The notes beneath the pieces were generated by a model that saw nothing but the letters and a program-made list of their open reading frames with translations, did not search any database and was not told the DNA's origin. From Octopus sinensis (lineage: Eukaryota), in the NCBI RefSeq assembly GCF_006345805.1, contig NC_042997.1:94302001-94366000 (forward strand): DNA of 64,000 nt, read 5' to 3'. The position numbers were made by a program, and so were the translations under genes. Below are positions 1 to 59,065 of the stretch, one piece after another (the stretch's first letter is position 1; every line of letters starts with the position of its first letter).

Positions 1-344
1 CACCTATTTCACGCACATACATACATACGTATGTATATACATATATATGGGTGTGTATGTGTGTGTGACCGGGATTTTGTATGCATGTAGCTATGTTTCT
101 CCTGTGTCAATGTTAAATGCCTTGCTTTACAGAGTTAAGTCAATATCTTGTGACACAGGCTCATATTAGAGCGAAATCCAAAGAAGGAAAAATCACAAAA
201 GTAATTCTCCCTCAAGCAACGTGTAAGCCATTGAATTCCTTGAAATCACAGCTTTATCATGACCACCATTCCATTACAACAGTGATAATTCATATCTGCC
301 TTTACATGTTCTAGGCTGAGAAAAAGTTGTATCCATGAGTGAGT

Positions 345-9609: not shown

Positions 9610-10905
9610 AGGCGAATATGTTGTTCAAAATGCACCTAAATTTGAAAAAAATTGTAATTGTTTTAAAAGAAATATTTTAGTTTCAACAATACTTTTTGTC
9701 TATGAATGGTAAAAATTTAGAATTTTGAATAAGAAAAATATGTTTAAAAGTTTCAATGTTGATAAGTTTAAATGTTCATAACTGTCAATAATATGTTTAA
9801 ATGTATAAAATTCAGTAGTTAGTAGTGGTTGACAAGAAAGAAATATCAGCAAAGTTTCAGTCATACTGATTTAAAAGGGAGAAAAACAAGGGAGAAATGA
9901 AGATAGTAAAAAAAGGGATTTAGTTTACAGTTTCTGTGATTCTCTTTCCGTCGTTTGCAGGAACTTTCACTTGTAACGGTGTCTTTTGGAATCCTGTGTA
10001 TTTATAAATTTTTCCGCGAACGGATCTGATTTGTGATTCGTTAAAGTATTGTTGACGTCTTTTGTTTCTGGTTGTCAAGTTTGTCGCCCTGCCTGGGGAA
10101 CGGTCATCAGCTGTTCCAGTCGTTTGATTATTTTAAAGGGTTATTTTGTTGTATTTGCTGAAGTTGGATTTAGATTGGAAGGAGAATTTCATTGGTCTAG
10201 AGTCAGGTGACGTCAGCAACTGGTGTTTGTAAAATTTCATGGTCTAGAGTTAGCTGACGTCGCCAACTGGTGTTTATATGGTTTTATTGTATGGTGATTT
10301 GGAGTTGCGGTTTCGAAACCCGGGTGGAAGACAGTTACTAAAGTTTTTAAAAATTGTCTGTTGTATGTGTTTGTTTTTTGCGTGGAGAAATTGTGTCCTT
10401 TTTCCTTTTTCTCTCTAGCGTGTTTTTCTTCTTTGTAAAGGATATTCAGTTGTGGTTTATATTTTTTAATAAGTATACTTTCCATATTTAAACGGAGTTT
10501 GGTTGAAGTGTTTCCTGTACATTGAGAGAGAGGTAAGATTTGGTATTTCGGGTTTATGTTTATGGAGCATTGGTCTAGGTGTTTGCTAACGGGCATTTTT
10601 CTGGTCGGAGGCTCTAGGATTTGTGGCCTGTGCACCGTTAGTCTGTCCCTTAAAGTTAAACTAGTTTGACCTATGTAGTCTCCACCACGCCCTCCACATT
10701 TGAGAACATAGATTAAGTTATTCGAAGCACAGGGGAAGCGATTTTTTATAGTAAACGTTTGACCTGAGTTAAATTTTTATGTTGAGTCCCCCAAGAAGAA
10801 GATCGAAGTTCCGCAGTTAGGGTGGTTGCACTTTTTGACTAGTGGGGTTGTATTTTAGTGAGTAATTTGGCGCTGGTGAGTAACTTTTTTAGGGATTGTG
10901 GTTGT
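9610..10905 (-). mobile_element. Penelope-like retroelement 3' fragment with GIY-YIG endonuclease and 3' UTR
   Basis: Minus translation KKCNHPNCG...CASNNLIYVLKCGGRGGDYIGQTSLTLRDRLTVHRPQI...VSKHLDQC...ESILIKKYKPQLN; LIY/YIG motifs with a Cys-rich linker (Neptune-like); UTR boundary approximate. Confidence 0.88.
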
Positions 10906-16258: not shown

Positions 16259-16583
16259 GTGAAGGCACATGGCTAGAGCATCGGATTTATAGTCGTGAGA
16301 TTGTGAGTTCGATTTCACGGACCAGGCTGTGTGTCGTGTTCTTGAACAACACACTTTATTTTACGTTGCTCCAGTTCACTCAGCTGTAGAATCGAGTTGC
16401 GACGTCACTGGTGTCAAGCTGTATCGGCCTTTGATAAAGTTAATAGCGTGGAAAGGGGAGGATGGTATGCATGGGCGACTGCTGGTCTTCCATAAGCAAC
16501 CTTGCCCGGATTTGTGCCTCGGAGGGTAACCCTTTAAGTGCAATCGCCTGATCACTTCTGACCGAAGGGGGTCTTTACTCTTG
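16259..16583 (+). mobile_element. tRNA-derived SINE, family B' with target-site duplication
   Basis: Alignable over its length with 58725-59065; flanked by AGGACATATTTA (16247) / AGGACATATCTA (16584). Confidence 0.88.
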
Positions 16584-24060: not shown

Positions 24061-24959
24061 GAGCTCGAACTACTAAGACTTAGACCCTCCACTAATGAAG
24101 AAAAATATAAAAGCATCGACGAGGAGATTCACAGGGAAATAAGCAAACAAACCGAAAGACAACCCTTCGAAAACACCATAAACTTTTGGAAGGATGTTTG
24201 TGAAAACGAAGAAAGAAATTCTCTCTAACGCTGGGAAAAAAGCAATGGTTTTTCCCCAGGACCAATCTCACACAACCTCACAGACAGTTCAAACAAACAA
24301 AACTGCAACCAATATTTTTTAGCCCTAGACGAGAGACACCAGGTCACAGGTTGGAACCTGGTGATCAGGAAAAACCGAAGATAATTAACCTCTCAACTAA
24401 GCCTCTTTCAAGTACAAAGAGAGACATCCTCTCAAAAGGGTTAAAATTCGCCCCAACACCACACACAACCAACCATAATATTGTGAAGGACAGTATAATA
24501 GAATTCTATAGAAAATTGAGACTCACAGAAGCATTATCCAGTTACAATAATGAAGATGACTTGCTAGTCAAAAACAAAAGTGAACACATCCCCCACAAAG
24601 GAAGAAATAAAAATCTTGATGAATTCTGCAATTATATTGAGAAGTTTCTCTATCACACCATGCATAAACAGAAAATTAACCTCAAACACAATGGAAGGAA
24701 CTAATAGAACTTCAAAATAATGAAGCTATAACGATTAAGGAAGCAAATAAATGAAGTGCGGTGGTAGTAATGGACACATTATACTATAAAAATCTAGTAA
24801 TCTCCATGCTGAATAAAAGTCAACATTACGAAAAAATTACAAACTACATCCACCAAAAAATAATGAAAACCCTATCCTCACTGATTAAAAACATGGAAAC
24901 GAACTGACAACAAAGGAAATTGATTATTTAACAAACTTTAAATGCAATCCTATCCTATT

Positions 24960-25366
24960 TCTTTACTACCCACAAAGATTTAACCCAGAGAGGACAAACA
25001 ACGACAGACACATGGATTGAGTCGATTACATCGACCCCAGTGCGTAAATGGTACTTATTTAATCGACCCCGAAGTATGAAAGGCAAAGTCGACCTCGGCG
25101 GAATTTGAACTCAGAACATAGCGGCAGAAGAAATACCTATTTCTTTAATACCCACAAGGGGCTAAACATAGAGAGGACAAACAAGGACAGACAAACGGAT
25201 TAAGTCGATTACATCGACCCCAGTGCGTAACTGGTACTTATTTAATCGACCCTGAAAAGATGAAAGGTAAAGTCGACCTTGGCGGAATTTGAACTCAGAA
25301 CGTAGCGGTAGACGAAATACCACTAAGCGTTTTTTCCGGCGTGCTAACGTTTCTGCCAGCTCGCCG
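24960..25366 (-). mobile_element. Nin-domain SINE (family C), head-to-tail dimer, inserted in PLE RT
   Basis: Head AGGCGGCGAGCTGGCAGAAACGTTAGCACGCCGG; two Nin cores; TSD CCTATCCTATT at 24949-24959 and 25367-25377. Confidence 0.92.
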
Positions 25367-25935
25367 CCTATCCTATTCTACGGTCTATCAAAAATCCACA
25401 AAAGCCAGGTTATAAATGAAAGCATAAAAAAATCACCAAAGACATGCATAATACACCAAACACAGGTGACCTAAAATTACGACCCATTATAGCTCGCCCA
25501 GCTTGTGAAACACACAGACTAAGTTAATTCATGGACATCCTCCTGAAACCCCTCCATAAACACACCAGTAAGTATATCAGAGATGACTTGGACATGTTAA
25601 ATCACCTCCCAAAAGTCAAGGAAGAAACATTCATGGGTCCATTTGATGTGATTAATTTATATACTAGTATACCTCATAATTATGGACTACAGGCAATTCA
25701 GTTCTGGCTGGACCAATATTTGGAAGAAATACTGGAAAGGATCAGTAAAGAGTTCATAACTGGATCGATTGAACTCATTTTACGAAATAACCATTTCATG
25801 CTTGATAACACGTTCTATCGACAAAAATCCGGAATTGTCATGGGCACTAGGGCATTGCGAACCTAACAATGAGCTATCTGGAAATAATAATATACCAGGA
25901 ATCTTTATCTACCTTTGGAAACCATCTTTCCCAAT

Positions 25936-26318
25936 GGAAGCACTCCGTCGGTTACGACGACAAGGGTTCCGGTTGATTCGATCAACGGAACAGCCCGCTC
26001 GTGAAATTAACGTGTAAGTGGCTGAGCACTCCACAGACACGTGTACCCTTAACGCAGTTCTCGGGGATATTCAGCGTGACACAGAGAGTGACAAGGCAGG
26101 CCCTTTGAAATACAGGTACAACAGAAACAGGAAGTAAGAGTGAGAGAAAGTTGTGGTGAAAGAGTACAGCAGGGATCACCACCATCCCTGACGGAACCTC
26201 GTGGAGCTTTAGGTGTTTTCGCTCAATAAACACTCACAACGCCCGGTCTGGGAATCGAAACCGCGATCCTACGACCGCGAGTCCGCTGCCCTAACCACTG
26301 GGCCATTGCGCCTCCACT
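25936..26318 (-). mobile_element. tRNA-derived SINE, family D, young, inserted in PLE RT
   Basis: Head GGAGGCGCAATGGCCCAGTGGTTAGGG...GGTTTCGATTCCC; TSD ATCTTTCCCAAT at 25924-25935 and 26319-26330. Confidence 0.92.
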
Positions 26319-27715
26319 ATCTTTCCCAATACATAAAAGAGAATTGCAAAATATTCCTGGACGACTGTTTCATCCTCTGGAATGGAATCAAAACACTGAC
26401 AAGCTCCTGGAATTCAAAAGAACTGGGTCAAACCAAACATACAATTCACAATGGAATACAACCAAAAGGAGCCCCCATTCTTGGATGTATTAGTTAAAAA
26501 TATAAACCTAAAAATAGAAACGGATATTTTATAAAACCACAGATGTCGAACAGTATCTACTATTTAATTCATGCCACCCAAGACACACCAATTAAACATC
26601 ACCTTCAACCTTGCATGAAGGAATGCACCATAGTGTCAGAAAAAAGAACAAGAGACTGTAGTCTGCAAGAACTCAAAAACACCCTCATTGACAGACACTA
26701 CCCAGTTCAATTCATAGAGGATGGAATTAGACGTGCAGCACAAATCAACGTAGAAACCTTAAGAAATGTTCAAAACAGCAGCACACCTTCCCCGAAAATA
26801 CTGCAGTACATATCCACATACAACCCCAGAAACAAAGAAGCCTTCACCATCATCACCCCAAATCCACCAATGCTACATAAGGACCCCAAATTAAAGAAAA
26901 TTTTACACACACATAAGATTATTAAAAGCCAAAATCAGCTGAAGACACCAAAAAAGAACCTTGTAACGGCAAAATTATTTTCTAAAATAACGGACACAAA
27001 AGTGAAAAAAATGTGGTCGAACAAACTGGGCAACACGCCCAGACCTTCTAGAAGGATCAGAATTCCTTTTTAAAGAGGAACAAAAATTCAAAATTACTTT
27101 TGCCTCGGAAAACCTGATTTATGTTATAAGATGATCGGGCTGCCACCAAAACTACGAGATTATCGCTCAGACGGAGATGCACTCTGCACCGACAGCAGAT
27201 TGCATTCCCAGAATACAGAATGATACCCTTCAGTTAACACATTAACAGATGCGCAAAACAACTACTACCACAATTTGTAATCTTTCCATTTTGTCAATGT
27301 GCCTTTGGAACAACAACACAAATTAGATTAATTAAGGAAACCTACTTCATTGAAAAATCTAAACCAAAACTTAACCATTTCTAACATTTTATTCTAACAA
27401 AATCAAATCATGCTAAATTAACAAACCCTAATCATTCCCAACATTTGCGATTATCTCCCTTATACCGAAAAATCTCTGACTACCCCCTCCTGTTTTGAAC
27501 TCTTCTACATAACACCATAGCGAATAGATGATACAACAACGGTAAAAAAAATTATGAAATTTGAAAAGAAAATGTCAAACCGGTTATTTCTCCAAAAACA
27601 ATGTCACTATACAAAATAATTTATAACATTTTTCCTAACATGACGATTTTAATATATTTTTTAAACTTATAATACAGATCTTAGGTAGTTTTTTCATTCT
27701 ATTTTGTTATATATA

Positions 27716-27772
<57 letters not shown>

Positions 27773-27929
27773 TATAGGGGTGCAGAACCTCACCAACAGT
27801 AAGCAACATCAAATACGACAACAAATGAGTTAAATAAGCAAACAACGAGGAGAGTAAAAAGTGGAAAATCGGACATATATATATATATATAGACTGTGTG
27901 TCCCCTCTGTCCGGCATTTGCCATGATGG

Positions 27930-27999
<70 letters not shown>

Positions 28000-28001
<2 letters not shown>

Positions 28002-44899: not shown

Positions 44900-47800
44900 T
44901 TATCTAGTATTGGACCAGCACACACGGTGTAGATGGAACACACAAGTCAATTCTGTGGTCATGTTGTGTTACTATTTGACCAAACCTGTAGACGAAAATT
45001 ATGCTCATATTAGGGTATACAGACAATGTATGTATGATCAATGGAGAGAAAGAGGACTATTTCAATTCACGGAACAGAAATTATGAGATAAAGTTTGGGC
45101 ACTAAGAAAAAAATCGGTGGTTCACAGAATAAGGGCTCGAAGCTATCAAAAGACGAGTATTGGAAAACTGCAGCAGAGGAAACGATGTAAATACAGTTCT
45201 TACACATAAAAGTAATCTCATAGCAGAAAACAGAGGTGAGATCTCTAATAAACCACAGAAAAGGAACAGGATAGCTTGCACTATGAGAGACATGTATATG
45301 ATCTGGAAGAAGACAATAAAACTAATGGTGACATGACAGTTTGGCAAAGGCAATCTACGACAGAATACAGGAAAGGCTAAAGGAGAACGATAACGACATT
45401 ACTTGCAATCTTAAAAAGGTTGATTGATTTGTGGAAATTGAAACAAGAAACGAAAAATGTGAATGAAATTCTGAAAATGTGCGTGTTGATGTCAAGATAA
45501 AGAAATATAATGGGCGTGACATAAGAAAAGATCCATGGTAGAAAAGAAGAATGCAGGCGTGGTTAGATATGCACTCGAAGGACATTTCTGTGTCAGACAG
45601 AAAAGAGAAGGGGGAGCTTAAAATCGAACAAAAATACAGGGCACTGTGTGATGTTGAAAGAAAGGGCCTGAAAGTGGTAATGGCGGAACTGAAACAGCGC
45701 CTCGTTTTAAAGAAAGCAAAGATTGTAAGATACAATCAAAGAATGAAGGGATGCCAGCAGAATAGGTTATTCAGAGTAGATAAGAAGAGATTCTACAAAG
45801 AAATAAATGGAGGGTATACAGATGAAAAGTTGATACCAGATAACATTGAAAGTCAAAGCTTCTGAAGTGACATCTGGAGCAAAGACGAGCACAAGAAGGA
45901 TGATGAATGGTTAATTGCAAAAGCTGAAATAAACACTAATGTGTCAACAACAGGCAGAGCTAGTCATTTCAGCTACGGAAGTGAAGGGAATGAGCCCCCC
46001 CCCCAAAAAAAAGAAAAAACAAAAGAAAAAAATTGGCAACTGGAAGGCCCCGGACCAGATGGAGTTCTAGGCTACTGAATCAAAAGATTTGCTGAATGTC
46101 ATGCACGAATAGCAACACCTTGCAAAATGCCGACCAAGTAACACGAGAGTGGTTGACAATGGGTAAGACAGTGCTGTGATTAAAAACATCGAAAAAGGCA
46201 ATACGGTAGACAATTACAGGCCGATATCGTGCTTGCCACTTATGTGGAAATTATTAACTGGAATAGTCGAAGAGTCAATGTACAGACATCTGGAAAAAAA
46301 TGGAGTCATGCCACATGAGCAGAAGCGGTGCAAACGTAAGTGCAGAGGTATCAAGGATGAACTCCTGCTAGACAAAACTGTTGACAAGAGGAGGAAAACT
46401 AACTTAGCTTTGTCATGAATAGATTACCGTAAGGCATACAATATGATCACACATTCTTGGATTATGGAATGTATGAACCTACTTGGTATTGCATCGAATG
46501 TTGAGCGATTGCTTGGTAAAAGTATGGCGAAGTGGACAACGGAATTGACAGCATATAGAAGAAGTTTAGGAATAATAGAAATCAGGAGAGGCATCTTCCA
46601 AGTGGACTGCCTGTCCCCACTGATCTTTGTACTGTACAAAATACCACTAACACTGATTTTGAGAAAAGTAAAGGCTGGGTATGTATTCAAGAGCAGTCAA
46701 CAAAAAGTGAACCACTTGTTATTCATGGATGACCTCAAACGTTATGGTAAAAATGAATCCCAAGTCAGTTCTCTCGTTGATACGGTGTATACTTTCAGTG
46801 CTGATATCAGAATGGAGTTCGGACTGAAAAAGTGTGGTGTGTTAGTCTTGAAGAGAGGCAAAATTAAAAGTATGGACGGGCTAGCAAAACTGTCGGTGGG
46901 AGTTATGAAGCAGATAGAAGAGACGGACTACAAGTACATGGAGATTTTAGGAATGATGGAGAAAGAAATGACAGAAAAATTTGAGTACATGCGCAGACTA
47001 AGACTGATTCTTAAGTTGAAATTAAAGGGACGGAATAAGATTGAAGCTATCAACATGGAGAGTACATGGTGTATCTGTGTCGCCCGTCTGCAGGGATGGT
47101 CGGGCGAGGTTTGCTTCCACTGCTACAGCTGTTGGTACCATTATGGGGGTGGGATTCTTCTGTTGAAAATGTCTTAATGGCCGTTGCTGCATTGATTGTT
47201 GTTGCAGTTTTTGGCCTTCTTGTGGTACTTCTTGTGGTAGCAGAGCCACTATGTGGGCGGAGGTCGTTCAAATGTATGTTATACCCACAAGTGTGGCACC
47301 TTAGCTTACTACCTTCCATCACGACTTGGAGTTGTGCTCCGCTGGGCAGCTGCACAAGGTAGGGGACCTTGTCCAAGGATTCCGGTTTTACGTAGATCAA
47401 AATCTCAAACTCGATTCCGGACCAGTTCTCCTTCCGATATTTTTCAATTTCTAGAAGCGATTCTGGGCCTTCAACCATAGCACACGCAACCAACCACCAA
47501 ATGTCTAATTTTGGTGGCACATCTCATATTTTAACTTCCACCACATTCTGTCTAAGGTAGGAAAGAGAAGAAGATCCTCGTGTTTGCACTGGACCATTGA
47601 GTGTTTCTGTTTCAGTGCCTCTGTGAAGAACCTCAATTCCACAGAACCATATTATCTTCCACGTGTGAGGAAATCAATATCAATCAAAACACCCTTCAAG
47701 CATTTTCCTACTTGAAATTTTTTTCTCGTCTTTAGCGACACACATTTGTGTACGATGGTCCTTCTAGCCGTCTTCTTCATCAAATCTGAAGGGATAGCAA

Positions 47801-48821: not shown

Positions 48822-51834
<3,013 letters not shown>

Positions 51835-51900
51835 TTAATAATAAACATAACAATAATAATGATAATAATAATAATGATGATGATGATGATGATGATGATG

Positions 51901-51959
<59 letters not shown>

Positions 51960-54273: not shown

Positions 54274-54639
54274 TATAGAAAATATAAATGAGTAACAGAA
54301 AGGTACAAGTGTCAATTCGTCATTCGGTCAGTACTTATGTACCAAGTTTGATATTTAATTAATATTGTTGTGAATGTATATCATTCACACACACACACAC
54401 ACGCATACATTTATGTGTGTGCGTGTGTGCGTGTGTGCGTGTGTGCGTGTGCATGCGAAAACGCACAAGTCACCATGCTAATAGTGTTCGATATGGAAAC
54501 CACATTTAGCAGGTGCTTGAGTAACGAGTATAAAATGATTGAAACACAGGGTTGTTTATAACACGGGAAAAAAGGACAGCTTTAGTTGAAAAGAAGACGG
54601 AAGACATGTTAATGGAATTTTGACAATTTCATTACATAT

Positions 54640-54809
54640 ATTATTTACATTATTTACATTAGACGGATATTTGTCCTCATCTTGTTTGTTGTTAACACAA
54701 CGTTTCGGCTGATATACCATTTAGCCTTCTTCAGGTGTCTTGGGGAAATTCCGAACCTGGGTTCTCATGCCTAAGGTATTTTTCGATGTTATCATCATCA
54801 TCATCATCA

Positions 54810-54891
<82 letters not shown>

Positions 54892-55062
54892 TGTTACGGC
54901 CTGGAATCGAACTCGGAATCTTGAGGTTAGAAGCCTGCGCTCTTAATCACTACGCCATATGCCCGTTGTGTTAACAACAAACAAGATGAGGACAAATATC
55001 CGTCAAATGTAAATAATGTAAATAATGTACATGATTCCTCATCTCTTAAATATAGAACTGTA
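54640..55062 (-). mobile_element. tRNA-headed, hammerhead-containing SINE-like element with inverted tail
   Basis: tRNA-like head 54893-54964 (TGGCGTAGTGA, loop CTTCTAA, GTTCGATTC), (AAT)n/(GAT)n, hammerhead 54694-54740; 63-bp inverted repeat 54640-54702 / 54964-55026. Confidence 0.85.
54694..54740 (-). ncRNA. Predicted minimal type I hammerhead ribozyme
   Basis: Minus strand GACAC-CTGAAGA-A-GGCT-loop-AGCC-GAAA-CG-TT-GTGTT; palindromic stem III AACGTT. Confidence 0.8.
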
Positions 55063-57854
55063 TTCATTACATATGTTTCAATAGTTACATCTATCGAATG
55101 AACATTATCAAAATATTTGGACATTTTTCAAGTGATGAAGATAATTCGATAAAGATTATTGAATCATATTTAATGAAAGATAATCTTTATATCCAACTTA
55201 ATGTAGATGTTTCGTTAAAACAGTGAATACTGCTTTATTAGCCTTGAGAAATCCTCTCATATTTGCTCTTGGGGCATAAGAGCACACTCGTAGATTGTAG
55301 CAGCCGAGAATCTTTTGTCATGGGCGCCGGAATTCTCAAACTCCGTGATGTCGTCCTACTGGAACCATCAACTGGAAGCGACTGGTCACCGTATACCATT
55401 GAAATCTCGGTGCTACAATACATAGAATATTAGGATCTCTTCAGATACTGATGCCGCAACTTAAATGCTTAGGATCCTGATCCAAACAAACCGCGACAGA
55501 AGCAGTCTGAATACTAATATGTAATCTTTATATCTAACTTAACATGGATGTCTTGGAATACTGCTTTATTAACCTCGAGAGATCCTTTCCTATAGGCACT
55601 TATGCAAAAAGCCTCATAACGTCTAGTCCATGAAAGTGTTACATTTTGTTGATCGCAGATGATACATTTCCTGACTTAGAGCGCGAAAGGCCTGACCATG
55701 TTGAACAAGTTCATGATCCCCGAGTTGCCGTGATTGGCAGTGAAAACCAAGTGCGATGTATCATGACATTCCTTACATCATACTTCACTCTGTCATCCTG
55801 TACTGTCAATACGTTTAATACACATATAAGAGAGTTAACATTTTGGTACGCTCGGTAGCATCACATTAGATCATCTTCATTTTCTGTTTACTGGAAATAT
55901 ATGGCAAAACTTTCAAAATATATCATTGGTTATGTCATCCTACCTGGTGATTCCTCCTGCTTCTACTACCGCAATCAGGCTTCATTGCTCACCTAAATCA
56001 GACCTTCGTCACCATATAAAGATCATATATTTTCGCAAATTTATTGACTGCACATATGAAGGCATACATTTTAAATTTGGTAACTGTTATCACACTTATG
56101 AATGAACAATGTCTTCTTCTGTCAGTGAAAGAATGAACAGTCACATCTATTATGACGTATAATTCGGTTGCCTGTCTGCGTAAGTTGTATCGAAGTTAAA
56201 GTTATGGACAACAGTGAAAATCGTGTCTTCTTAGTGTATTAGAAGAAACATGGCACATTTTCTGCAATTTTTTCAATGTAAACCAAGCTAATATCTACTT
56301 AAAGCACTGACAATACCAAATGTTATTGTAACATAACATATTTCTTCAATGCTTTTATCTAACGTACCCGAATGTATGATAGTAACAATAGTTTTGTATG
56401 AAATAAGTTAAATATTTTGATAAAAGACTATTTTTGTACATGAATGTTGCTTAGATTTAAAACAACTGATTTCAATTTGTTGATGGAAAGAAACCAATAT
56501 AAAAATAGGTGTATTGATGATATTCGTCTGATGCACATATAAGCTGTTTAAGAAATTGGTTATGTAATGCCATATGGTACATTATAACCACGCGATTATA
56601 GAAGCCAAATGCCAAACAGAAGACAAAGTCTGTACTATTACATTTAGCAAGAAGCTCACGAGTGTAGTTATAATCTCGAAGATATAGTCTTAAAATCTAT
56701 TTTTCTCTATACGTAACACTACACATACATATAAGACAATCACTCGCAATTCCACGTACATGTGATTAAAGTTTTTTTAACATTTGATTCCCGCGACCGC
56801 CTATATTGTATGACATTTGCAATCGAAACAGTTTCCTATCATCTCATGATCAATCGATTTCTCAATATCCTCTCTTATTCCCCGAAACCACCACTTCCAC
56901 GTTTGCATAGTCTTTGTGTCCCTGAAATAAGAGTTAAGTCTGACATCTTTTACAATACAAGGAATGTAAAAATAAGAATAAAAATAAAAACACATGATAG
57001 CATTTGTAATCAACCTATTCCAGCTATTATTTCGAAACAACATTTCGAGCGAAGTAAGAGACAAGTAAGGATATAATTGATATGGAAGAACATTTCATGA
57101 ACAAGAAGAAATAGAAAAGAAAAAGGAAAACGAAAAACCTATTTTCTTTTAAAAGTTTCCCATGTAAATTGAGCGTTAAATAACTGATAACCGGGAAGAA
57201 AAGTAAATGTACTTTGAGGACAAATGTGTTCTGTTGGAATTATCTAGAGAACACATGAGAAAAATCAATAAATGGCTTGTTCTACTTTAGAGATATGAAT
57301 CCCATCACAGATAGTGACAGACTACTCCTACTATTTTGAAATAGTATTTGAAAGACTCCGGTGAATCCATATAAAGCTATGTTTTAATTTTGTTCACTGA
57401 ATAACATATTTTATCTTGGGTCTTAACATCCCTTATGATCTCATATGGAATCACAACAAAACGATTAATACTATTTTATTGCTGGGAATGCAAAATTAAG
57501 GAATTTATAATTTAAAAAAATTCTTGTGTGTTGATTGAATTATGAGTTAGAAGCGATGTTCAGAATCATGCATTTTGAGGTCATGAATATTACACATGGA
57601 TATTTTTGTGGAGTTAGAACAAGTATTTATGTTTTATTTAACACAGATGATATATTTTAGTTTGGCAAGTTTAATAAGAATATGTTTATTTTATTTTTTT
57701 TAAAGTGTAAACTCTTCATGAACGAAATTTGAATACTATAACTATGTGAAAATTTAAACTCGCGAATGCTTCTGAAATAAAAAGTAATGTCAAGGAGAAA
57801 GTGTATAGGTGTGGAATCAAGACAAAGGAAGAAAATAATTGTTTTTAACTTAGA

Positions 57855-58040: not shown

Positions 58041-58724
58041 CATTCAGAACACATCTAACCAATAGAGAAAACCAACAGAGGAGCAAGATTTACAAAGCTG
58101 ACGTGAAATTGTTGATGTTTTAATGTGTTGCATACAAAAAACAAACAAACAAACAAACAAAACAAAAATACGCTTCAATTTTCTCTTAAGTAAACTTTCT
58201 CAAAAGTGACACATTCTATTTTCTAAACCATTTTGCACTAATTTTTAAATATCTGATTTAGTTCCTAATGGGGAAATACTCAGCAAATATAAATAATACA
58301 TATCTTTCAACGGAAAGAAAAAAAAAATTCCAAATAAGTCGAGGAGTATAACATCTTCAGATATCTGAGACAATTATCAAACAGTTAGATTTTAAAATGA
58401 CTCAAGAGAGGGTTTTGTTATTATGTTTTTTTTCGTTAATTTAAGTTTCACAAATGGTCAATGAAGGAGTACGTTGCAGTTCGTTTGGATCAAGTTTCCA
58501 AGAATTGTTTTGGAACTTCTTCATCTCATCTTCTGCATGAAGTTATATTAACACTTGTTGCAATCATTTTATAGCAGGGACAACGAATGTGACCTGTGTT
58601 GTTCTCAACACAGGGGTTTGAATTTTGGACCATTAGATTTTATACATCATCAGTTACAGTTTTATCTTCTGTTATTAAAGTATATTATTTGTGTGTTATT
58701 TTAGTTGTGATGTACTATGGGTAT

Positions 58725-59065
58725 GTGAAGGCGTATGGCTCAGTGGCTAGAGCGTCGAGCTTGAGATCGTGAGGTTATGAGTTCGATTCGCGGACCGGGC
58801 TGCATATTGTGTTCTTGAGCAAGACACTTTATTTCACGTTGCTCCAGTTAACTGAGCTGCAGAAATGAGTTGCGACATCACTGGTGCCAAGCTGTATCGA
58901 CATTAGCTTTTCCCTTGGATAACATCAGTGGCGTGAAGAGGGGAGGCTGGTATACATGGGCGACTGCTGGCCCTCCATAAACAAACTTGCCCGGACTTGT
59001 ACCTAGGGGGGTAACTTTCTTGGTGCAATCCCATGGTCATTCATGACCGAAGGGGGTATCCCCAT
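58725..59065 (+). mobile_element. tRNA-derived SINE, family B', full length with TSD
   Basis: TGGCTCAGTGG A box, GAGTTCGATTC B box; TSD TATGGGTAT at 58716-58724 and 59066-59074. Confidence 0.92.

Follow-up and report, generated by a model that had tools for sequence, protein, structure and literature searches.

A SINE-shaped octopus repeat with a tRNA-derived head as the very probable terminal repeat of an autonomous Penelope-like element

Short interspersed elements (SINEs) are regarded as polymerase III passengers of polymerase II-transcribed long interspersed elements (LINEs), and, to our knowledge, protein-coding retrotransposons are not thought to use polymerase III themselves. The insertion described here lies at 54640-55062 of a 64,000-nucleotide stretch of the Octopus sinensis genome (contig NC_042997.1, positions 94,302,001 to 94,366,000; hereafter the window, with positions counted from its first letter). 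It belongs to a SINE-shaped repeat, which is almost certainly the terminal repeat of its own mobile element, namely the pseudo-long terminal repeat (pLTR) of an autonomous, protein-coding Penelope-like element (PLE). This short repeat may be the octopus OK SINE; the families OK, OR1 and OR2 were reportedly described by Ohshima and Okada in 1994, and if the identity is right, the repeat is already known and its PLE origin apparently is not.

The closest described systems are the Penelope/Poseidon PLEs (Anolis PAc, PMC11167929; Adineta Pen2a, PMC3846280; Drosophila Penelope, PMC2377424), for which, as for the other literature cited here, we refer to the available parts of the sources. The octopus element resembles them in its single open reading frame (ORF) of about 835 amino acids, with a reverse transcriptase (RT) followed by a GIY-YIG-like domain, in a pLTR that holds the ORF start and a minimal hammerhead, in partial tandems, in an inverted 5' copy, in a tail of about 30 nt on one arm only, and in a target-site duplication (TSD) of about 9-14 bp. 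An inverted 5' copy is described for PLEs, as is a tail at one end (PMC8557442, PMC3846280), and in the Anolis PLE two RT start sites measured in vitro flank the tail, ribozyme cleavage is dispensable, and the ORF begins in the hammerhead region (PMC11167929). The promoters described for these PLEs are LINE-like or TATA/Inr-like, whereas the octopus pLTR opens with a head of tRNA origin that has A and B boxes, followed by (AAT)n, 5' ends are piled up at this head, and the sense strand is free of T runs; these three features are new.

The repeat shares with tRNA-derived SINEs (SINE2) an A/B-box head, a length of about 250-350 nt, many copies and a 3' part recognised by a partner's RT, but, unlike theirs, its head also stands in the autonomous element that serves as its partner, its "tail" is made up of the ORF start and hammerhead of that partner instead of a LINE 3' untranslated region, more than half of the insertions carry an inverted arm, and no separate SINE lineage was detected. 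Non-autonomous PLE derivatives are known (PMC8557442; PMC7229834; bioRxiv 10.64898/2026.07.22.740005), and among these the non-LTR retrozymes of the latter two sources are likewise short non-coding relatives of PLE pLTRs with a type I hammerhead; what defines them, however, is circular RNA together with head-to-tail arrays, neither of which was seen here, and a word search of the available text of both sources returned no polymerase III, SINE-head or octopus case. The TRIMp3 elements Cassandra, Helenus and Ajax (PMC10886601) also carry a small-RNA-derived polymerase III promoter sequence in a terminal repeat, but they are non-autonomous LTR elements of 311-1263 bp, whereas the small-RNA head in the octopus stands in the repeat of a protein-coding PLE; according to the same source (2024), autonomous partners necessarily use polymerase II. 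Full-text literature searches returned no tRNA head in a PLE pLTR and no PLE-mobilised tRNA SINE, which the repeat databases (Repbase, Dfam, SINEBase) or the 1994 octopus paper might nevertheless describe.

The link between the short repeat and a protein-coding element comes from the sequence upstream of the head, which is common to some of the copies selected by their head and which in one of them (L054) is the end of an RT/GIY-YIG-type ORF. In 30 ORF-end loci found with an ORF-plus-head query, and hence selected for that junction, the ORF end, a 29-nt spacer and the head were contiguous in all 30, and the body followed the head in 28. In a set of 30 loci read at the tail, the tail ran into the ORF start in 26 (four being copies of one insertion and two being one locus). 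One insertion with near-identical flanks was found on one chromosome-scale and three small contigs (L110, L111, L112 and L114; also L125-L128), and these haplotype or assembly duplicates were counted once for the consensus. A further sample, drawn with the tail motif only, consisted of the first 100 matches on contig C1, each taken together with as much as 1.5 kb upstream and 0.3 kb downstream; it gave 97 insertions, with three arm pairs merged by hand and two re-chained, and 142 arms, 21 of which extended back into the ORF. Complete tandem junctions were present at four loci (L134, L143, L149 and L150), a nearly complete pLTR-ORF-pLTR arrangement at L250, and copies that start at the head and continue into the ORF at L257 and L145. 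Within the unit, the head is followed by (AAT)n, then by the ORF start, which holds the hammerhead and tail, by the RT and GIY-YIG part of the ORF, by the 29-nt spacer and by the next head. The majority sequence of 60 long segments is a 2,655-nt unit with a single 835-aa frame, which starts with an ATG at +119, passes through the hammerhead and tail, and ends 29 nt ahead of the next head. An autonomous PLE with the same hammerhead and tail, for which a first-pass annotation made from the letters of the window had proposed a search, is thus represented in the genome, by disrupted copies.

The frame is supported by PLE proteins in public assemblies (P0001, P0014 and P0024), which are 72-75% identical, and horizontal transfer is possible. 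The Pfam model RVT_1 scored over its cut-off on a native piece of the ORF, and Pfam GIY-YIG gave no match on a native 186-aa piece; the GIY-YIG assignment is based on Y..YxG and CCHH-like residues judged by eye, and the 835-aa frame is about 30% alignable over residues 345-664 to a PLE family of the same genome that is positive for Pfam GIY-YIG. On every feature tested, the element is an endonuclease-positive (EN+) PLE, and its domain order, together with the lack of the Cys linker that the control family has, suggests placement in the Penelope/Poseidon clade. A genome search with the homolog P0006 listed 116 matches, several of them at loci of the tRNA-headed family, and a metagenome scan gave seven distant loci in which A and B boxes were absent by pattern. 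A genome search with Pfam GIY-YIG retrieved other PLE families only, with the tRNA head or the tail of the present family at 0 of 30 loci, and these families were used as controls. They include an abundant younger family (L061-L090, e.g. L067 and L068) with a Cys-rich linker ahead of GIY-YIG, several open frames of about 780 aa and, at most loci, no hammerhead by pattern. The start of P0021 looks like a hammerhead in antisense, so that an inverted pLTR may be present there as well.

The window copy shows this organization in compact form. The insertion at 54640-55062 consists of two head-to-head arms, a direct arm on the minus strand and an inverted arm on the plus strand, between two identical copies of a 12-bp TSD, TTCATTACATAT, at 54628-54639 and 55063-55074 (plus strand). 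The TSD, which the first-pass annotation had missed, abuts exactly the coordinates that it gave, and because a single TSD surrounds the whole insertion, both arms came in by one insertion event. The direct arm (54640-54964, minus) is one entire pLTR from head +1 to a short 3' end at about +247. It comprises a tRNA-derived head (+1 to +75; 54890-54964, minus) with retained promoter boxes and a degraded cloverleaf, the polymerase III-type A box (54947-54957, minus) and B box (54903-54912, minus), for both of which the sequence here and the family majority form are known, and an (AAT)26(GAT)7 spacer (54791-54889, minus), which varies in length from copy to copy and forms the 5' leader of the ORF. 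The first 35 ORF codons follow at 54664-54768 (minus; ATG at 54768), as identified by tblastn of the family ORF at 91% identity; in this copy the ORF start is interrupted by a stop, and the frame is backed by the homolog P0014. A minimal type I hammerhead motif of the dimer type, with helices I and II in the minimum-free-energy fold, lies at 54694-54739 (minus). The inverted arm (54964-55062, plus) is truncated at its 5' side, running from about +185 to +274 and finishing at a long 3' end, and it joins the direct arm head to head at a 3-nt microhomology (54964-54966, without strand) that is the native -2..+1 of the head. Its stretch of about 30 nt at 55030-55062 (plus), the PLE "tail", is unique to this arm and leads into the ORF in long copies. 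Thus, the tRNA-like head, (AAT)n, minimal hammerhead, tail and abutting inverted arm lie where the first-pass annotation had placed them; its inverted copy of the tail, given there as 54964-55026 with 62/63 identical, also exists and extends beyond the repeat to 55062, and the repeated part as read here pairs 54637-54702 with 54964-55029 at 64/66 identical positions. With a short end at 54640 and a long end at 55062, the window insertion is typical for the family.

An adjoining inverted piece was found in 55 of the 97 sampled insertions, and the 3' ends of the 97 were bimodal, 58 being short near +247 and 39 long near +275. Pair statistics were based on 45 pairs, 10 of the 55 having been dropped for a second 3' end that was unresolved or within the ORF; one short and one long arm were combined in 42 of the 45 (P 4e-10). 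Both kinds of 3' end were also present as loose ends in RNA-run reads. A TSD-like match of at least 9 nt flanked 25 of 45 pairs vs 3 of 42 single-arm copies, a count that had no shuffled control, includes some low-complexity matches and to that extent weighs against our reading; the edges of single-arm copies are often lost within the triplet array. Inverted arms and pairs of short and long 3' ends are ordinary PLE features, and the earlier proposal of mobilisation by a PLE, for which the inversion and tail were taken as hallmarks, is borne out. Because the two arms differ in their 3' end in nearly every pair, fold-back of a single cDNA as the only origin of the inverted arm is disfavoured.

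These features could be produced as follows. Transcription would start near head +1, and the RT would bind just past the hammerhead and begin synthesis at either about +247 or about +275, two sites being used as measured for the Anolis PLE. A start in the first pLTR of the transcript would yield a cDNA of 250-275 nt that reaches the RNA 5' end, a SINE-shaped copy retaining both the promoter and the RT-binding site, whereas a start in the second pLTR, on a transcript that reads through a tandem, would give ORF-bearing copies. Both nicked strands may be primed, one per start site; if the two cDNAs were then joined, either at a microhomology or at a small hairpin of the head, an inverted pair would be left within one TSD, as in the window. 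The template is likely to be uncleaved RNA, because copies span the cut site. The abundant and sharp-ended short insertions also represent a natural readout of PLE integration, in which two RT start sites are used, almost always one per arm, and cleavage is not needed, in agreement with the sole in vitro study (PMC11167929, available part).

The remaining question is which polymerase transcribes the element. The head was 50/74 identical to genomic tRNA-Arg(TCT) (z 7 relative to shuffled sequences), the best but by a narrow margin of the six isotypes sampled (47/74 for Ala and 46/74 for Cys or Lys). The first-pass assignment to Arg TCT therefore stands narrowly, but the loop CTTCTAA on which it relied is a variant of the window copy, the family majority being CTACTAA; ARAGORN called no tRNA at the window head. 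As in SINEs, full copies end at the head: 37 of the 61 arms that reach +10 stop within -10..+10 of head +1, and the per-nucleotide stop rate there is 0.043 vs 0.002-0.003 elsewhere, i.e. 13-19 times as high. T runs terminate polymerase III transcripts, and the sense strand of the 2,655-nt unit contains no TTTT (4.8 expected by base shuffle, P 0.006; 3.2 by codon-order shuffle, P 0.02; 2.8 by synonymous shuffle, P 0.03), no TTNTT (4.6 expected, P 0.008) and 13 TTT (28 expected). Native long copies of the family have 0.34 TTTT per kb, whereas in eight segments of control PLEs, representing about five families, there are about 4.9 TTTT per kb, and both TTTT and TTNTT are at or above the shuffle expectation. 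Since the sense strand lacks a polymerase III terminator over 2,655 nt, the same promoter could also make the full mRNA.

On balance, we favor the reading that the insertion consists of two head-to-head pLTR pieces of an autonomous PLE and that the A/B-box head is likely an internal polymerase III promoter. Transcription of the short copies by polymerase III is probable, and for transcription of the full ORF the chances appear to be about even. Whether the autonomous element has swapped a polymerase II promoter for a tRNA-derived one, purged terminators over 2.65 kb and makes its own SINE as a by-product is similarly balanced. If the full unit is indeed a polymerase III transcript, this would be an uncapped retrotransposon mRNA and a direct route for the birth of a SINE from a PLE.

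It is also possible, though we consider it rather unlikely, that this is an ordinary polymerase II PLE whose pLTR once acquired a tRNA or SINE fragment, so that the head is a passenger or drives short RNAs only, with a hairpin causing the pile-up and base composition the lack of T runs. There is precedent in the LINE-like internal promoter of Drosophila Penelope (PMC2377424) and in rotifer PLEs, in which pLTR 5' ends and inverted junctions alike carry palindromes (PMC3846280), and a number of our own observations weigh in the same direction, against a polymerase III promoter. A native 5-bp hairpin straddles head +1, other PLEs are reported to have palindromes at their pLTR 5' ends (PMC3846280), and 28 of the 37 arms stopping at the head belong to inverted pairs; since such a hairpin could stop or join cDNAs, part of the pile-up needs no promoter. 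Against Markov nulls that take up the TT depletion, the absence of T runs did not reach significance (P 0.065 and 0.26), runs of G are scarce too (GGGG, 0 vs 1.1 expected; GGG, 13 vs 20 expected), and the control PLEs are distant, at 25-50% amino-acid identity. Moreover, a two-codon upstream ORF lies at +7, an uncapped transcript would still need translation, and every ORF copy examined is disrupted, giving no sign of present activity. Against a passenger head, single-arm copies stop at the head as well (9/21, P 1e-8), both the A and B boxes are intact although the cloverleaf has decayed, and the gapped terminator-like TTNTT is absent too, whereas T runs exceed expectation in control PLEs whose T content is similar.

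RNA reads did not shift this balance. Raw reads of three RNA runs and the contigs of one further run were mapped on a native copy (L117:1500-2600); the RNA runs may or may not be stranded or poly(A)-selected and possibly come from another species. In the three runs, mate orientations were about equal, no start pile-up at the head and no end pile-up at the cut was seen, 75-79% of reads entered unrelated flanks, and depth tracked the copy profile of the DNA. These results also do not favor polymerase III, but such a pattern is expected if passenger transcription dominates, and hence speaks neither for nor against the polymerase III model. A search of sequencing runs listed no RNA run that contains the sequence.

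The hammerhead bears on a further possibility, that of an independent polymerase III SINE or retrozyme that acquired the end of a PLE, undergoes cutting by its ribozyme, which sets one of its ends, and is perhaps circularised, with the ORF-linked heads being later recombinants. The motif consists of helix I GACAC/GUGUU, a CUGAAGA core with one additional A, helix II GGCU/AGCC, then GAAA, and a loopless helix III formed by the palindrome ACGU, with a predicted cut between 54699 and 54698. Sequence and fold agree with three traits described for minimal hammerheads of PLEs (PMC4209133, available part), namely an extra nucleotide between 9 and 10.1, G10.1-C11.1 and a palindromic 15.2-16.2; Rfam called no hammerhead or tRNA in the whole window at the gathering threshold or in two other copies in E-value mode. 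The core was intact in 30 of the 70 copies that span the motif, which can be taken in favor of an independent retrozyme. The commonest non-CpG variant there, T/A at family position +157, falls on core position 7, the one hammerhead position free to vary, and occurs alike in solo and ORF-linked copies.

The first-pass annotation had placed the start of the inverted arm within about 4 nt of the predicted cut, and this is correct: the arm begins 1-4 nt before it, a range rather than a point because CGT is common to the palindromic helix III and to the -2..+1 of the head. Its proposal that ribozyme cleavage sets one end did not hold in general. Among the arm 5' ends between +113 and +205, six of 35 lay at +185..+192, within 4 nt of the cut, vs 3.0 expected (P 0.076); this enrichment, the recurrence of the breakpoint that cleavage would predict, is not significant, the ends are scattered, and clusters as large lie at +121..128 and +153..160, so that a cleavage-defined breakpoint was rejected. 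Microhomology explains the window junction without ribozyme cleavage, and a minor fraction of the templates may be cleaved. To judge from the sequences, the hammerhead motif, predicted to be self-cleaving, would not be used to define element ends.

An independent SINE or retrozyme would also fit the great excess of short over ORF-bearing arms, the position of the window junction and the six ends near the cut, and PLE-derived retrozymes have been described (bioRxiv 10.64898/2026.07.22.740005, available part). It is opposed by the head, which is identically placed behind the ORF at all 30 ORF-end loci and at the tandem junctions, and by the heads of 106 solo and 46 ORF-linked copies, which have one consensus with common variable sites and no diagnostic variant between them. 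In this comparison no distinct lineage of short copies was seen, and a non-autonomous lineage with a head missing from the partner was not found. A separate SINE subfamily was accordingly rejected: no site was diagnostic, low P values were few and mostly at CpG, and the samples were biased by the choice of query. Head-to-tail arrays of the short unit, which the first-pass annotation had proposed to look for, were absent from the 97 sampled insertions, although a rare array elsewhere is possible. No RNA-specific circular joint was present among the 15 listed, the sole back-joint (62 nt, off the cut) also occurring in the contigs of run X17. Such an independent element is thus improbable, and for the family it is already largely refuted; the SINE/retrozyme hybrid of the first-pass annotation gives way to a head that belongs to the pLTR of the autonomous PLE itself.

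The other part of that proposal, a head and hammerhead-tail forming one mobile unit, was confirmed in copies selected by their head, in which the body lay downstream in 23 of 29; chance nesting of a tRNA-derived repeat beside a PLE fragment at the window locus alone could draw on the six of 29 without a body downstream, but it is refuted by the genome-wide recurrence of the join and by the single TSD around the whole insertion, and we give it next to no credence. A genome search with the body gave 1,065 candidates, and the 40 scored were at 92-95%. A 20-nt tail motif had at least 7,201 exact matches in the genome, vs 0 for the reversed control motif. The exact motif was present in 11/39 and 9/35 arms of two samples, which extrapolates to about 25,000-28,000 arms, and in 2/32 of a third, which extrapolates to 115,000; the estimate is unstable, and the real number of arms is probably some tens of thousands.

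The window also contains other repeats. An 879-aa open frame at 48975-51611 (plus), with an RVT_1 match (E 7e-24) and a weak zf-RVT match, is flanked by a (TAT)n/(TAA)n tract (48828-48976) and an (AAT)n tract (51802-51958), and represents a non-LTR retrotransposon copy in a triplet microsatellite; a second RT fragment lies at 46419-47174. Frames at 10240-10776 (minus), 24204-24701 (plus) and 26498-27070 (plus) are, by eye, like other PLE families of the genome and correspond to GIY-YIG-like, N-terminal and RT-thumb pieces, the first of these frames being without a Pfam match. Finally, 58724-59052 and 16296-16573 belong to a different repeat family that also has a tRNA head, with motifs resembling A and B boxes, and that is unrelated to the PLE pLTR repeat.
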